Shown in pieces: positions 2,921 through 12,767 of a stretch of 13,104 bases of DNA. The position numbers and the translations under genes were made by a program. The stretch spans positions 1 through 13,104 of the IMG/VR virus record IMGVR_UViG_2703718848_000006; one strand, written 5' to 3'. This DNA comes from a virus (taxonomy: Duplodnaviria; Heunggongvirae; Uroviricota; Caudoviricetes). The notes beneath the pieces were generated by a model. The model saw only the letters and a program-made list of their open reading frames with translations. It made no database searches and was not told where the DNA came from. How positions within the stretch are numbered: the first letter of the stretch is position 1; each line of letters starts with the position of its first letter.

Positions 2921-3350
2921 TGCCGTCACGGTGCTGAAAACAAGCCCCGAGATGCTGCGGATATTCGTGGATAACGGGAGTATTGCCTCCACACTGGCGA
3001 CGTCGCTGTCATTCGAAAAGCGTTACACGCTCAATGTCATTGTGACCGACTTTACCGGTGATTTTGACCTGCTCATTGTGCCGGTGCTGGCGTGGCTGCG
3101 GGAAAATCAGCCCGACATCATGACCACCGACGAAGGCCAGAAAAAGGGCTTCACGTTTTATGCGGACATCAACAATGACAGCAGCTTTGATATCAGTATC
3201 AGCCTGATGCTGACCGAGCGCACGCTGGTCAGTGAGGTTGACGGTGCACTGCATGTGAAGAATATCCCGGAACCTCCGCCGCCGGAGCCGGTCACCCGCC
3301 CGGTGGAGCTTTATATCAATGGCGAACTGGTGAGCAAGTGGGATGAATGA
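2883..3350 (+). CDS. R: Tail completion protein gpR, 155 aa
   Basis: MLKPDSLRRALTDAVTVLKTSPEMLRIFVDNGS... at the P2 R position. Stop TGA 3348-3350 overlaps the S start region. Confidence 0.85.
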   Translation: MLKPDSLRRALTDAVTVLKTSPEMLRIFVDNGSIASTLATSLSFEKRYTLNVIVTDFTGDFDLLIVPVLAWLRENQPDIMTTDEGQKKGFTFYADINNDSSFDISISLMLTERTLVSEVDGALHVKNIPEPPPPEPVTRPVELYINGELVSKWDE

Positions 3351-3795
3351 GTTTAAGCGTTTTGAAGACCGGCTGACCGGACTGATTGAGTCGCTGTCAC
3401 CGTCAGGGCGTCGGCGGCTGAGTGCAGAGCTGGCGAAGCGTCTGCGGCAGAGTCAGCAGCGTCGGGTGATGGCACAGAAAGCCCCGGACGGCACACCCTA
3501 CGCGCCACGCCAGCAGCAGAGCGCCAGAAAAAAGACCGGTCGTGTTAAGCGAAAAATGTTTGCGAAACTTATCACCAGTCGTTTTTTGCATATCCGCGCC
3601 AGCCCGGAACAGGCATCAATGGAATTTTACGGCGGGAAGTCGCCGAAAATCGCCAGTGTGCATCAGTTCGGTCTGTCGGAAGAAACCCGGAAAGACGGTA
3701 AGAAAATTGATTATCCGGCGCGTCCTCTGCTCGGCTTTACCGGTGAGGATGTGCAGATGATTGAAGAGATTATCCTGGCTCACCTTGAGCGTTAG
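3343..3795 (+). CDS. S: Tail completion protein gpS, 150 aa
   Basis: MNEFKRFEDRLTGLIESLSPSGRRRLSAELAKRLRQ... at the P2 S position. ATG at 3343 overlaps the R 3' end. Stop TAG 3793-3795. Confidence 0.85.
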   Translation: MNEFKRFEDRLTGLIESLSPSGRRRLSAELAKRLRQSQQRRVMAQKAPDGTPYAPRQQQSARKKTGRVKRKMFAKLITSRFLHIRASPEQASMEFYGGKSPKIASVHQFGLSEETRKDGKKIDYPARPLLGFTGEDVQMIEEIILAHLER

Positions 3796-3824
3796 TTTTA
3801 TCCAGGCAGAGGCTGATGCGCAAT

Positions 3825-3861
3825 TAAACATTGAGCGGCCATGCTGGTCGCTCAATGTTTA
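3825..3861. terminator. Perfect 13-bp inverted repeat (11-nt loop) between convergent S and the cargo-1 gene; candidate bidirectional terminator or RNA-stability hairpin
   Basis: TAAACATTGAGCG (3825-3837), loop GCCATGCTGGT, CGCTCAATGTTTA (3849-3861). Lies between the S stop (3795) and the minus-strand stop at 3867-3869. No clear U-tract on either strand. Confidence 0.4.
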
Positions 3862-3866
3862 GAGGT

Positions 3867-4652
3867 TTATGAGTGATTTTTATTTGATGCTTTGTATTCT
3901 AAAACCTTCTTATTGGCGTAAAAGAATTTTGTATATGACAGGAATATAACCAGACCTGAAGTGAAATAGACGAGGGATAGTATTAATAATGCTTTTTTGT
4001 GACTGTTATTATCTTTAATCTCCTGGTTTAACCATTCGGAGTCCTCCTCGTTTAGCTGTAAGAGCTTATTGCAGGCGATCTCAGGAAGTGTGTCTTTTAT
4101 AAATACGTTTTGCAGTCTCTTGCAATCGGCAAGGGTATAAGTTTTATTAAATTCAACTGCTTTATTTTTGAAGGATAAAAGAACTTTGTCACTATAAACA
4201 TAGTACATCATGTTTTTATATGGTATGCCTATGGCATCCCTTACTATAACGGATTGTTCGTTGTGTATGTAACATGCGAGGAGAATGTAAAAAATACTGG
4301 CCAGAATTACAATTATTGTTTTAATTATGTGTGGTGGTTTTGTTATGTCACCCCAGATGCGAGTAAGGAAAAAATACGATGTTTTTAGTTTTCCATCAAT
4401 CAGTCCCTGCTGTATCATTCTCACATTTTCAATGCCTGATACATTGATTCCGTTAATTATTTTAAATAGTTGAATGTCGCGCCACTCGCGGTCAAGTCTT
4501 TTTAATTTTTTGTCTGAATATCCAAAATTGAAATAATGTGCAATAAGCCTCATAAGGTTACTTTTACCAAAGCTAAAAAATGCTAATACTGCAAAGCTAC
4601 AAAGGAAAAAAACGATTAGCCCCCACACATTAGTCACATTATAGCTGACCAT
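3867..4652 (-). CDS. Cargo (moron) gene: 261-aa predicted three-TM membrane protein of unknown function at the S-V (P2 orf30) position
   Basis: ORF with AAGGAG RBS 6 nt upstream of the ATG at 4650-4652. AT-rich (about 25% GC on a sampled line versus ~57% in flanking structural genes). Hydrophobic segments at about aa 9-28, 108-129 and 221-240. Opposite strand to all flanking tail genes. No motif I recognise. Confidence 0.7.
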   Translation of the reverse strand: MVSYNVTNVWGLIVFFLCSFAVLAFFSFGKSNLMRLIAHYFNFGYSDKKLKRLDREWRDIQLFKIINGINVSGIENVRMIQQGLIDGKLKTSYFFLTRIWGDITKPPHIIKTIIVILASIFYILLACYIHNEQSVIVRDAIGIPYKNMMYYVYSDKVLLSFKNKAVEFNKTYTLADCKRLQNVFIKDTLPEIACNKLLQLNEEDSEWLNQEIKDNNSHKKALLILSLVYFTSGLVIFLSYTKFFYANKKVLEYKASNKNHS

Positions 4653-4735
4653 TACGCTCTCCTTGAATGTTGTCTGGTAGTTCTACAAATGAATCCAGAT
4701 AGCATAACTTTTATATATTGTGCAATCTCACATGC

Positions 4736-5349
4736 ATGAACACTCTCGCAAATATTCAGGAACTCGCGCGCGCACTGCGCAACATGATTCGCACCGGCAT
4801 TATCGTCGANNCCGCGTGCAGACCGGCGGCATGTGCACCGACTGGCTTCAGTGGCTGACCCATCGCGCAGGACGTTCGCGCACATGGTGGGCACCTTCCG
4901 TGGGGGAACAGGTGCTGATTCTGTCCGTGGGCGGTGAACTCGACACGGCATTCGTTCTGCCGGGGATTTATTCCGGCGATAACCCCGCGCCGTCTGCGTC
5001 GGCGGATGCCCTGCATATCCGTTTCCCTGACGGGGCGGTGATTGAGTATGAACCCGAAACCAGTGCACTTACGGTAAGCGGAATTAAAACGGCCAGCGTG
5101 ACGGCTTCTGATTCTGTTACTGCCACGGTGCCGGTGGTCATGGTGAAAGCATCAACCCGCGTCACCCTGGACACACCGGAGGTGGTCTGCACCAACAGGC
5201 TGATTACCGGCACGCTGGAAGTGCAGAAGGGCGGGACGATGCGCGGCAACATTGAACACACCGGCGGTGAACTCTCATCAAACGGTAAGGTACTGCATAC
5301 CCATAAACACCCCGGCGACAGCGGCGGCACAACCGGGGGACCTCTATGA
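4736..5349 (+). CDS. V: Baseplate spike/assembly protein gpV; 5' region interrupted by a 2-N gap
   Basis: ATG at 4736 gives MNTLANIQELARALRNMIRTGIIV, then NN at 4810-4811, after which the reading continues in another frame as RVQTGGMCTDWLQWLTHRAGRSRTWWAPSVGEQ...GDSGGTTGGPL. Both parts match P2 gpV as I recall it. The frame break coincides exactly with the gap, so it is an assembly artefact. Confidence 0.85.
4810..4811. other. Assembly gap (NN) inside gene V
   Basis: Two N characters; the reading frame of V changes across them. Confidence 0.95.
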
Positions 5350-9353: not shown

Positions 9354-9853
9354 ATGCAGCATTTAAAAAATNNCAATATCAATTGACAAAGAATTTTGAT
9401 GTTGTCTGGTTTTTTTCAGAAGATGGTAAGAACTGGTACGAAGAACAAAAGTATTTTGCTGATGACACGATAAAAATAGCGTACGACAAAGATAATATCA
9501 TCCGCTATGTGGAAAAGGATGTGACAGCTATCAGACCGGATGGATTAAGTGTTGTTGAAGTGGCGGATATTACTGCTAACCGACGGGCGGACATTTCAGG
9601 GAACTGGATGTTTAAGGATGGCACAGTGATCAAACGAATTTATACGGCAGAGGAATTGCAACAGCAGGCAGAAAACAGGAAAGCCAGACTTCTTGCAGAT
9701 GCTGAATCAGTCATCCAGCCGCTGGAACGCGCTGTCAGGCTGAATATGGCAACAGACGAGGAACGCACACGACTGGAAGCATGGGAACGCTACAGTGTTC
9801 TGGTCAGCCGTGTGGATCCTGCAAATCCTGAATGGCCGGAAATGCCGCAATAA
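9354..9853 (+). CDS. G: Tail fibre assembly protein (gpG/Tfa-like chaperone); 5' end interrupted by a 2-N gap
   Basis: ATG at 9354 (MQHLKN), then NN at 9372-9373, after which the long frame continues as [20 protein letters not shown]...[47 protein letters not shown]. This C-terminal region is the conserved Tfa chaperone domain. The track's TTG at 9383 is probably not the true start. Confidence 0.75.
9372..9373. other. Assembly gap (NN) at the 5' end of the tail fibre assembly gene
   Basis: Two N characters; frame break between the MQHLKN start and the downstream ORF. Confidence 0.95.
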
Positions 9854-10134: not shown

Positions 10135-10830
10135 TTAATCACTTAAGGAATGAAGTGAGGCTCGTTGTGCAGAGGTTAAGCTAAGGAGGATTTTTTCTCG
10201 ATACTCAGGTGCAAAGGAAAAGAAAACATCAGGAAAAATTCTTATGATAGTTGATATCATAGTCTTAACCACCTTATCAATCACCTTCGAAATATTATCT
10301 ATTTTAACCAAGTCTATTTCGGGAAAAACATTTAAAGCTTTTATGTGAGCCATTTCTTTTACAGTAGCTGTATGTACGTGACTGCATAACGAAGAGTATT
10401 CAGCTTTTAAAGTTTCATGTAGTAGAGGATTTTTTTTGAAGACAGGATGTTCCCCAGTTTGTTCAATTACCTTAAACAATGATTTTTCTTCAAGTATTGA
10501 AGGATCTAGTAAGCAACCGATTGATTTTAAAGAATTTTCAATATAACTTCGCATCATTAGATTTGCTGGTTTGTATGCACCATTTATAACCATAAACATA
10601 GCTGTACCAAGGTCAGATGAAGCTTCTTGCAATCGCTCCAATGAGTTGGCGTCTATTTTCTCCTTGGAGAAATGATACAAACAGTAAACAAGGCACATAA
10701 AAGAATAATATCTCTTATGTATCATGCTTATTTTCCCTCTTGAGTTAATATTCTCGAAAACATTTTTTAATTTATATTCAGAGAAATAAGTAACTAACTC
10801 AGTGAAATCGCTGTTTACTTCTCTCGACAT
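10135..10830 (-). CDS. Cargo-2 gene 3: hypothetical protein, 231 aa
   Basis: ATG at 10828-10830 with AAGGA RBS about 6 nt upstream. Only 2 nt separate it from the stop of the upstream gene. AT-rich. No catalytic or structural motif I can recognise. Confidence 0.65.
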   Translation of the reverse strand: MSREVNSDFTELVTYFSEYKLKNVFENINSRGKISMIHKRYYSFMCLVYCLYHFSKEKIDANSLERLQEASSDLGTAMFMVINGAYKPANLMMRSYIENSLKSIGCLLDPSILEEKSLFKVIEQTGEHPVFKKNPLLHETLKAEYSSLCSHVHTATVKEMAHIKALNVFPEIDLVKIDNISKVIDKVVKTMISTIIRIFPDVFFSFAPEYREKILLSLTSAQRASLHSLSD

Positions 10831-10832
10831 TG

Positions 10833-11339
10833 TTAGTCCTTATTGAATATATCTTTTATAACTTCATTCCAGTCATATATCTCATTTTGAGCGCTAGAAA
10901 GGTTCTTCCTCTCTTTTATTCTACTCAAAACTAGAGGGTTATTTGACATTGAATTGATAATATTATAAGCCTTACCTAAATCGGATGAGTTTTTCTCGTG
11001 AACGTCACACACGATTATGCCGATCATTTCCTCTCTAGATCTTTTTTCAGGCCTGCTGATTTCGATACCTAACATGCGTGCAAAATCATCTATATCTTTA
11101 TTTTTTTGGAAGAGATCTTTGTCTAATAAAATCCTCGGAAGATACCCAACAAGGAAACCTTTAATATCATTTTTTTTAGACTTTGAATTTCTTTCGTTAA
11201 CTTCTAAATTATCAGTATAACTATCTTGAAGTAATTCAATAAAGTTGATTCTTGATAATTTTTTTGAAATAAAGGAAAACTCCTCTAAAAAGTTTAACAG
11301 TTGCTTAATTTCTTTTGAGTTATTTTTTTTGTCAGTCAT
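10833..11339 (-). CDS. Cargo-2 gene 2: hypothetical protein, 168 aa, Lys/Glu/Asn-rich
   Basis: ATG at 11337-11339 overlaps the TGA of the ParA-like gene (ATGA overlap, translational coupling). No recognisable motif. Confidence 0.65.
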   Translation of the reverse strand: MTDKKNNSKEIKQLLNFLEEFSFISKKLSRINFIELLQDSYTDNLEVNERNSKSKKNDIKGFLVGYLPRILLDKDLFQKNKDIDDFARMLGIEISRPEKRSREEMIGIIVCDVHEKNSSDLGKAYNIINSMSNNPLVLSRIKERKNLSSAQNEIYDWNEVIKDIFNKD

Positions 11340-12166
11340 AAGTCACCTACTCTAGAGAGAAGTTCGTCAGTAATTTTAGACAGCGAAAACTTCATATCCT
11401 CATCAGTTAAATTGTTAATAAATAAGCCTCTTGTTTGATTTCTTGCCAACTCAGTACGTTTGCTCAAATATGATTTAAAGATCTTATTACGCCAACGTTT
11501 TTGATTATTGAAGTAACGAAGACTTTCCTCATATAAATTACTATTACCTTCAACCATATTAAAAACTATGCCCGCACATTCAATCTTAAGATCGAAATTT
11601 TCTCTCTTCTCATTTATAATGCTATCTAATAGATCGATACCAGTGATCGAAAGAGGATCGGGTTTGGCTGGAATGAGGTAATAATCAGATGCAATTAATG
11701 CGCTGGACATCCAAACTGATGGGGTTGGTGGGGTATCAATTATGACATAATCATAGTCATTTTCATGGATTTTAAGAAAGCGTCTAAGCTTGTTTTCTAT
11801 CCCTTCTCCTGGTTTCATTTCAATTTTATATAGCCCAAGGCTTCCGGGAACAATGTGAAAATTATCATTTAATTGAATTGGTGTTATATCGGCTAATTCT
11901 TTAGGTGTGTTAACTAAAGGACCAGTCATTGTAGATAGTCGAATTTTTGAACTATAAAAAATATCACATATGCTATCGCCTCCGCTTTTCATATGTGCAA
12001 CATATTTGCTTGTATCCATTACACATTGCGTTGCGTTAAATTGTGGGTCGATATCTATTAATAATATTTTTTGCCCAAGTTTATCTGAAAGATGATTAGC
12101 AATATTGGTAGCCAATGTTGACTTACCAACGCCACCTTTCATATTGATTAAGCTAATAACTTTCAA
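11336..12166 (-). CDS. Cargo-2 gene 1: ParA/MinD/Soj-family deviant Walker-A ATPase, 276 aa
   Basis: N-terminus (M/L)KVISLINMKGGVGKSTLATNIANHL carries the deviant Walker A motif KGGxxK[ST]. LLIDIDPQFNAT and the Walker B-like YDYVIIDTPP are also typical ParA motifs. Probable TTG start at 12164-12166 with AGGAG SD 8 nt upstream; an alternative ATG start lies at Met9. Confidence 0.85.
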   Translation of the reverse strand: MKVISLINMKGGVGKSTLATNIANHLSDKLGQKILLIDIDPQFNATQCVMDTSKYVAHMKSGGDSICDIFYSSKIRLSTMTGPLVNTPKELADITPIQLNDNFHIVPGSLGLYKIEMKPGEGIENKLRRFLKIHENDYDYVIIDTPPTPSVWMSSALIASDYYLIPAKPDPLSITGIDLLDSIINEKRENFDLKIECAGIVFNMVEGNSNLYEESLRYFNNQKRWRNKIFKSYLSKRTELARNQTRGLFINNLTDEDMKFSLSKITDELLSRVGDL

Positions 12167-12180
12167 TCTTCTTGCTCCTG

Positions 12181-12199
12181 TTTTGATTAACGCTAAGCT
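12181..12199. repeat. Direct repeat copy B (TTTTGATTAACGCTAAGCT), immediately upstream of the ParA-like gene RBS
   Basis: Matches 12394-12413 (ATTTTGATTAACACTTAAGCT) at 19/20 positions with one indel. The two copies are about 213 bp apart and bracket the AT-rich presumed promoter region. Confidence 0.6.
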
Positions 12200-12393
12200 T
12201 TTTCATCAGCATTGAAATTTAACATGTGTTTTACAAACTTATGTCTTATCACTACCTTATCATTTTTTACATACACCATAAATATTTTTAACTAAAAATT
12301 TTTGGTTTTCAACCTGAAATCTTTATCTTTAAAAACAAAACATTACAATATTTTTAGTAAGATGCCTTACCTAATGTAATGTGAATGGCTCAA

Positions 12394-12413
12394 TTTTGAT
12401 TAACACTTAAGCT
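12394..12413. repeat. Direct repeat copy C, at the distal edge of the AT-rich cargo-2 upstream region
   Basis: See copy B. A weaker related motif (TTAATCACTTAAG, 10135-10147) overlaps the stop codon at the other end of the operon. Confidence 0.55.
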
Positions 12414-12767
12414 ATGTTAATAATGGTTTTGTAAGTGTGATGAGGGTTCCATATGAAGAAGTGATTTCCCGAACAATACAACATGAATATCATCCTCGTA
12501 GTCGGTGTTTCTTCACATGAACTCTGTCGCAAATACGCTATATGAAACGTGGCAAGATGAATGTACCTGAGGTTATCAATCTTAAACCGCTTGAGAGTAC
12601 GCCCTGATCCTGCCCGTTGATAAACTAACTGCATTGTTTGTAATGCTTCATCGGTGGTGAGAACAAGTTTCGTACTTCCGCTTCTCGCTCAAAGCAGACT
12701 GTCAGATTTGATAGCGTTTTGGCTATGTAAGTTGCCAGTTGGGAAATGAGTGAGTACAAATCAGGAC

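Follow-up and report, generated by a model that had tools for sequence, protein, structure and literature searches.

orf30, an antisense gene between tail genes S and V of P2-like phages, encodes a predicted inner-membrane protein that may act in superinfection exclusion

The window, by which we mean the whole 13,104-nucleotide stretch of DNA analyzed here, is a P2-type late region in which Pfam matches identify genes R, S, V, W, J, I and H and a tail-fibre assembly gene. Positions 3796-4735 separate gene S, which corresponds to P2 S in the AF063097 annotation, from gene V. They hold one gene on the minus strand (3867..4652), an ATG-initiated reading frame of 261 codons and a stop according to the ORF list and its translation. 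This is the sole long frame of the interval, with 271 open codons as against 69 or fewer in each of the other five, and a stop-free run of 261 codons has a chance of about 2e-9 at the base composition of the interval. An earlier note on this DNA had described a 261-aa gene on the minus strand of the S-V interval that runs against the tail operon and is preceded by a strong AAGGAG ribosome-binding site and an 83-bp interval (4653-4735). Our ORF map agrees with that description, the AAGGAG was found 6 nt before the ATG, with five of its six positions invariant among six alleles, and the interval agrees with a V start mapped to 4736 (Table 1). The GC content given in the same note, about 25%, was too low, the computed value being 33.8% for the ORF and 35.1% for positions 3796-4735, compared with 54-57% in the flanks. 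The start of V, which reads divergently from orf30, was placed by mapping against V of phage L-413C. In the window V looks frameshifted, and its true ATG is absent from the ORF list, because of an NN at 4810-4811 that replaces approximately 24 bases of V relative to P2 (2101 versus 2123 aligned bases). Further N runs lie at 2185-2219 and 9372-9373.

Table 1. Features of the S-V region of the window; topological assignments are predictions (TM, transmembrane; AF2, AlphaFold model)
Feature	Position	Strand	Basis
Gene S, tail completion/virion morphogenesis, left flank	3343..3795	+	Pfam Phage_tail_S, E = 4.9e-44
Hairpin with 17-bp stem between convergent S and orf30	3825..3861		Inverted repeat, 94% complementary
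Basic C-terminal tail, aa 242-261, predicted cytoplasmic	3870..3929	-	5 K/R versus 1 D/E
TM helix 3, aa 220-241	3930..3995	-	Hydropathy and AF2 helix
Loop 2, aa 131-219, predicted periplasmic alpha/beta domain	3996..4262	-	89 residues; AF2 secondary structure
TM helix 2, aa 107-130	4263..4334	-	Hydropathy and AF2 helix
Loop 1, aa 29-106, predicted cytoplasmic helical domain	4335..4568	-	78 residues; charge and alignment
TM helix 1, aa 8-28	4569..4631	-	Hydropathy and AF2 helix
Shine-Dalgarno sequence AAGGAG of orf30	4659..4664	-	Sequence, 6 nt 5' of the ATG
Ogr activator-binding site, V late promoter	4667..4694	+	Placed by position from P2 annotation
Gene V, baseplate spike, right flank	4736..5349	+	Pfam Phage_base_V, Phage_spike, Apex

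At the DNA level this region is 97% identical to phage P2, and a BLASTP alignment of the product with P2 Orf30 (AAD03281.1) is gapless, with 258 of 261 residues identical and I141T, T173S and N209S as the only substitutions from the window to P2. The position, orientation, terminator and V-promoter interval of the gene are also those of P2. The earlier note had recognized the P2 orf30 position, and we are nearly certain that the frame is orf30 itself (99% identity). What we describe is therefore the rediscovery of a catalogued gene: GenBank entry AF063097 labels it 'nonessential', the product matches phrog_2407 over residues 1-261 of 261 (E = 5.1e-148; PHROG label 'unknown function'), and the gene has been listed as 'unknown', its site being one of three variable loci in P2-like phages (PMC3091744). 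Phage R18C carries a different 741-bp ORF at the site (PMC6823313). A literature search for orf30, DUF6216, PF19723 or the protein accessions found no functional study. New here are the extent of the family, its fixed synteny, lone chromosomal survivors, a topology with a cysteine pair, and domain-specific selection.

The intergenic elements on either side of orf30 are those annotated in P2. The hairpin between S and orf30 corresponds to P2 9397-9433, the 'putative rho-independent terminator for O operon' of AF063097, with folding energies of -27.6 kcal/mol on the plus strand (z = -5.1) and -22.4 kcal/mol on the minus strand (z = -5.3). It is kept among E. coli alleles, in which the few substitutions fall in or beside the loop and at two stem positions, and it probably serves as a bidirectional terminator common to S and orf30. 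The 83-bp interval upstream of orf30 is mostly filled by the annotated V promoter and the Ogr activator site, where the window is identical to P2 misc_feature 10239-10266 ('activator binding site; activation of pV promoter'). No sigma-70 promoter for orf30 was detected in 4653-4735 with default scan settings. A relaxed scan gave a weak minus-strand candidate that overlaps the V start (TTGCGA-16-GAGATT with an extended TG, 4751-4724) and one further, weaker sigma-70-like site. It is plausible that the predicted orf30 promoter lies within the 83-bp interval and shares it with the V promoter. An Rfam scan of the entire window returned no RNA family.

No motif in the product had been recognized in the earlier note, and our family scans were in accord: Pfam gave no match to Orf30 at E ≤ 10, the PADLOC-DB 2.0 defence-protein HMMs gave 0 families at the same threshold, and NCBIfam gave nothing usable, its one match, to a tick-cell protein, scoring 15 bits against a 120-bit cut-off. 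The remote-homology and structure searches that the note had suggested yielded no informative fold match for Orf30. A Foldseek search of BFVD returned nothing at E ≤ 0.001, and a PDB profile search returned only noise on the membrane helices (E ≥ 0.035). A CorA-type channel (CorA/Mrs2/ZntB) was considered on fold resemblance only and rejected, as the GMN signature, the two C-terminal TM helices and the cytoplasmic funnel domain did not fit Orf30. Taken together, the family and fold searches connected Orf30 with none of the known families for defence, exclusion, lysis or transport.

Finding the family of Orf30 took an exhaustive profile search. A word-indexed protein search gave only five clusters, comprising close E. 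coli-type alleles and one Enterobacter protein (39% identity), and an exhaustive profile search gave 44 cluster representatives, 36 of them below 1e-10. Approximately 25 are full-length members of 250-271 aa with 16-38% identity to Orf30. All named members are labelled 'hypothetical' and come from Enterobacterales (Escherichia, Enterobacter, Serratia, Pectobacterium, Yersinia, Sodalis, Gibbsiella and Cronobacter). A locus search with a narrower alignment recovered three Enterobacter loci, and a protein search seeded with the Sodalis member returned that member alone. On sequence grounds the family appears to be remotely tied to Pfam DUF6216 (PF19723), a model of about the same length as Orf30. 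Ten of 25 members match it, the longer matches being collinear with the model, and Orf30 itself has no Pfam match. The scores of the five listed members (13-24 bits) lie below the gathering threshold of 27.3 bits, and the best E-value overall is 8.7e-07, for one further member. Precomputed Pfam data assign PF19723 to the Sodalis member (P0028), with the mark 'faint'.

Hydrophobic segments were located by Kyte-Doolittle hydropathy, and an AlphaFold model was built with the 25-sequence alignment (pLDDT 87.6, pTM 0.76). All the hydropathy segments are helical in the model, as expected from the three TM helices predicted in the earlier note. In the model there are three long helices, loop 1 folds as a helical domain, and in loop 2 helices accompany a four-strand sheet. 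The mean net charge over the family is +4.2 for loop 1, +2.0 for the C-terminal tail and approximately 0 for loop 2, and the N-terminus is devoid of Lys and Arg. Loop 1 carries the motif D.QLFR..NGINV...DA..I...I..G.L. Loop 2 carries a pair of cysteines (Cys-177 and Cys-194 in Orf30) in 25 of 25 aligned members, the first being displaced by one helical turn in three of the 25. From the charge bias, the cysteine pair and the model we infer an N-out/C-in topology, in which loop 1 would be cytoplasmic and loop 2 periplasmic, with a Cys-177-Cys-194 disulfide probably holding the predicted periplasmic domain. The product is accordingly predicted to be an inner-membrane protein with three anchor helices.

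The pattern of substitution differs between the parts of the protein. We calculated dN/dS from six E. coli-type alleles, and since the pairs are non-independent the values are descriptive; the near-identical window-P2 pair (four substitutions) was left out of the whole-gene range. For the whole gene dN/dS is 0.41-0.57 with dN of 0.03-0.13, compared with dN/dS of 0.00-0.20 and dN of 0.018 or less for S and V, so that overall amino acid change in orf30 is about 10 times that in S and V. The soluble parts have dN/dS values of 0.31 (loop 1), 0.26 (loop 2) and 0.23 (C-terminal tail), and the helices have values of 1.16 (residues 1-28), 0.71 (TM2) and 1.76 (TM3, from small counts). At the level of the family, mean pairwise identity is highest in loop 1 (0.33), followed by loop 2 (0.23), and is 0.15-0.22 in the helices. 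The soluble domains are under purifying selection and the membrane helices drift. Such drifting helices next to constrained loops are suited to a role as anchors and argue against a pore or channel lined by them.

These values bear on two alternative accounts of the gene. In the first, orf30 would have no current function and would be a hitch-hiking ORF preserved by its position between essential genes. The fairly high whole-gene dN/dS is what such an ORF might display; the dN/dS of about 0.3 in both loops, the conservation of the cysteine pair and motifs, a frame that is open in all alleles and homologues examined, down to about 16% identity, and the presence of intact copies in decayed prophages all speak against it, and we regard it as extremely improbable. 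In the second, Orf30 would be an abortive-infection effector that disrupts the inner membrane on infection and kills the cell before the phage cycle is complete. Single membrane proteins at prophage cargo sites do include such effectors (RexB-like and other membrane Abi proteins), and an AT-rich gene with weak promoter signals would fit the tight control of a potentially toxic product. Near-neutral helices (dN/dS 0.7-1.8) are, however, the reverse of what is expected of a pore lining, a conserved sensor partner gene is absent, and there is no PADLOC match. Membrane killing by Orf30 is in our judgement unlikely.

A homologue lies antisense between V and S in eight distinct, diverged P2-like prophage contexts. 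In the Yersinia and Sodalis prophages it is the sole cargo at this site, and in prophages of Enterobacter, Serratia, Pectobacterium and Cronobacter and in one from a Logan assembly (locus L014) it stands alongside other cargo; in one decayed prophage the copy is truncated. The R, S, V and W proteins of these prophages are 41-84% identical to those of P2, compared with 22-39% for the Orf30 homologues. That the homologues have diverged at the same site indicates that orf30 is an old, fast-evolving resident rather than a recent arrival. The same comparison modifies the claim in the earlier note that the gene is compositionally foreign. Its AT-richness relative to the flanks is borne out, but recent acquisition is not, since every family member has a GC content of 30-36% (hosts and flanks 43-60%) at protein identities down to about 16-20%. 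With low GC in all the diverged members, acquisition history cannot explain the composition, and the AT-richness is maintained, possibly for silencing or low expression.

The other cargo at these sites varies. In Enterobacter (L004, 6915-7736, minus strand) and Serratia (L008, 7085-7879, minus strand) a second protein, of 273 and 264 aa, respectively, is encoded between S and the orf30 homologue, tail-to-tail with the latter. The two proteins are 27% identical to each other and have N-termini that look hydrophobic. Neither matches a PHROG and the Enterobacter copy has no Pfam match; the gene could be a partner of the orf30 homologue or independent cargo. In Cronobacter (L026, 3965-4899) two same-strand genes, one for a 180-aa protein without a family and one for a 133-aa DUF7480 protein, lie between V and the homologue, with which they may form a three-gene unit. 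In the Logan-assembly prophage an 89-aa fragment of the V N-terminus (L014, 6737-7006; Phage_base_V) adjoins the homologue and an intact V is also present, which looks like the footprint of cassette exchange by recombination within V.

We also examined occupancy of the S-V site in complete E. coli genomes. The orf30 interval is present in 464 of 5426 (about 9%), always on the chromosome and at 80-100% nucleotide identity (at least 90% in all records but two). A P2-type S gene was found in 1576 of these genomes, and 1024 contain an intact empty junction of 66 bp from S to V, as in phages L-413C and fiAA91-ss. These numbers bear out the description of the S-V interval as a cargo site in the earlier note, and because the empty and orf30 states dominate, in E. 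coli the site is mostly a polymorphism of two states and not a diverse hotspot. Among isolated phages orf30 was found in Peduovirus genomes only; viable phages without it include L-413C and fiAA91-ss. From the S stop to the V ATG the empty-type junction (L-413C; L002, 797-862) has no similarity to the P2-type interval 3796-4735, so the two states also have different promoter and leader regions next to V. Serratia prophages with an orf30 homologue retain, immediately upstream of V, an L-413C-like hairpin and a GGCGGCATCCTT motif. It may be that the sequence upstream of V in the P2 type arrived together with the orf30 cassette.

We also considered whether orf30 serves P2 during its own lytic growth. 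It might set the timing of lysis, help to assemble the tail or baseplate at the membrane, or control transcription of the V operon from the interval shared with V. The gene always adjoins V and runs divergently from V or the V side of the site. The P2-type cassette takes the place of the entire S-V interval, the region upstream of V being part of the exchange. The intergenic spacers, with a near-invariant 83-bp interval, are about 98% identical among alleles that differ at approximately 8-13% of nucleotides in the ORF. We nevertheless judge a lytic role to be very unlikely. The P2 annotation calls the gene 'nonessential', some P2-like phages are viable without it, about two thirds of E. coli P2-type prophages lack it, it runs antisense to the late operon, and it is kept where lysis, head and S genes are gone.

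Survival of the gene outside intact prophages was seen at several loci. In the P2 remnant of E. coli B REL606 orf30 is intact, and S and the portal gene are truncated. In place of its head genes this remnant (L015, 1-2770) has an 'ABC-three component system' that includes an AAA ATPase and directly adjoins orf30 and the two truncated genes. In Serratia strains a lone homologue lies between an ASCH-domain gene and ecotin; at this locus one metagenomic contig carries, besides the homologue, a fragment of GpR and remnants of terminase and portal, and another strain has a 186-like integrase beside it. In E. cloacae a lone homologue (L019, 5001-5765) lies between trhP/yegQ (peptidase-U32) and yegS in 24 of 24 contigs read. 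E. coli K-12 carries the cryptic P2 remnant PR-X (ogrK, yegZ) at the same trhP-yegS spot, next to cyaR (L030, 4184-4812). Two Enterobacter species have a lone homologue flanked by genes for an ECF sigma factor and a chemoreceptor. The lone gene thus survives in three chromosomal contexts, at least two of which are P2 integration sites, and some chromosomal relatives have apparently been domesticated. Retention of the gene after loss of the phage points to a benefit to the cell and not to virion production.

Such a benefit might be unrelated to phage entry. Orf30 would then be a lysogenic-conversion factor that alters envelope physiology for the good of the host, for example in stress tolerance, colonization or tolerance of colicins and tailocins, and it could pass a signal from the periplasm on to a partner in the cytoplasm. 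E. cloacae, Serratia and Enterobacter have lone, intact copies in the chromosome away from any phage genes, which is consistent with this proposal, as is the predicted arrangement of selected soluble domains on either side of the membrane with drifting anchors, which is the layout of a sensor or scaffold. Domain scans detected no enzymatic or signalling domain, however, most of the contexts examined link the family to P2-like phages, and the gene evolves fast relative to its neighbours. We consider a conversion factor of this kind somewhat unlikely.

We favour, with a probability of roughly 0.35, the reading that orf30 is expressed from the prophage and encodes a superinfection-exclusion factor that works on its own at the envelope. 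A gene that is 'nonessential' in P2 and absent from viable phages and from the 1024 genomes with an empty junction, that has the same antisense S-V position across diverged P2-like prophages and is intact where the prophage has decayed or gone, would fit this role. So would a protein that changes fast overall with both soluble domains under purifying selection, and that has no constant partner gene across the contexts examined. In such a mechanism Orf30 would act alone in the lysogen, at the level of the envelope. Its periplasmic domain would encounter the DNA-delivery apparatus of an incoming phage at the inner membrane and keep the DNA out, and through the conserved cytoplasmic domain the protein would be attached to a conserved host or self partner. 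The beneficiary would be the host cell rather than virion production. The earlier note had named superinfection exclusion, abortive infection and defence effectors as frequent roles of lone membrane proteins at prophage cargo sites, roles for which survival in decayed prophages and fast evolution are indirect support. Several observations weigh against an exclusion function. Neither the PADLOC nor the fold searches gave it support, there is no convincing sigma-70 promoter upstream of the gene, and the most conserved part of the protein is predicted to be cytoplasmic, a part that a simple periplasmic blocker would not need. The orf30 site is also not mentioned in recent papers on P2 defence hotspots.

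The closest analogy is with SieA of phage P22, a small multi-pass inner-membrane protein of a prophage, as is likewise predicted for Orf30 (PMC10883804). The sieA gene is antisense at the end of a structural operon, beside the ejection-protein (DNA-delivery) genes, and orf30 is similarly placed. SieA sequence types are less than 30% identical, comparable with the high divergence of the Orf30 family, and SieA acts alone, as we propose for Orf30. In contrast to Orf30, with its predicted 89-residue periplasmic domain, SieA has 164 aa and lacks a large periplasmic domain. The activity of SieA, which blocks DNA entry by P22-like phages, has been demonstrated, and that of Orf30 is proposed by analogy. 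The two share no detectable homology, hhalign of the 25-member family alignment against P22 SieA giving a probability of 0.3%, and since there is no sequence relation Orf30 may work like SieA but is not a member of its family.

A more novel reading is that Orf30 and its DUF6216-related family are membrane guards of a new class, each working alone and on both faces of the membrane, and tied to the spike gene of contractile tails. With its disulfide-bonded periplasmic domain the protein would sense or stop the inner-membrane step of DNA delivery by P2-like phages, or the puncture by related R-type tailocins, and the conserved cytoplasmic domain would signal to a host partner. This reading would explain why the gene stays beside V across Enterobacterales and survives prophage decay; as a whole we think it quite unlikely. 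If orf30 is an exclusion or immunity factor, it would be a third, overlooked protective locus of P2-like prophages alongside old/tin and Z/fun, and would give Pfam DUF6216 a function. The comparative data in any case narrow the hypotheses for this gene of a model phage.

The window contains a second AT-rich block (10135-12634, minus strand; approximately 27-38% GC), which follows the tail-fibre assembly gene and occupies the gap that holds Z/fun in P2-like phages. Its four ORFs encode 231, 168, 276 and 75 aa. The 276-aa product matches the ParA/AAA_31 ATPases (E = 1.4e-37) and, weakly, the PADLOC family PDC-M28B (3.8e-05), and the other three products have no family match. Of the complete E. 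coli genomes, 133 contain the block with at least 80% coverage.
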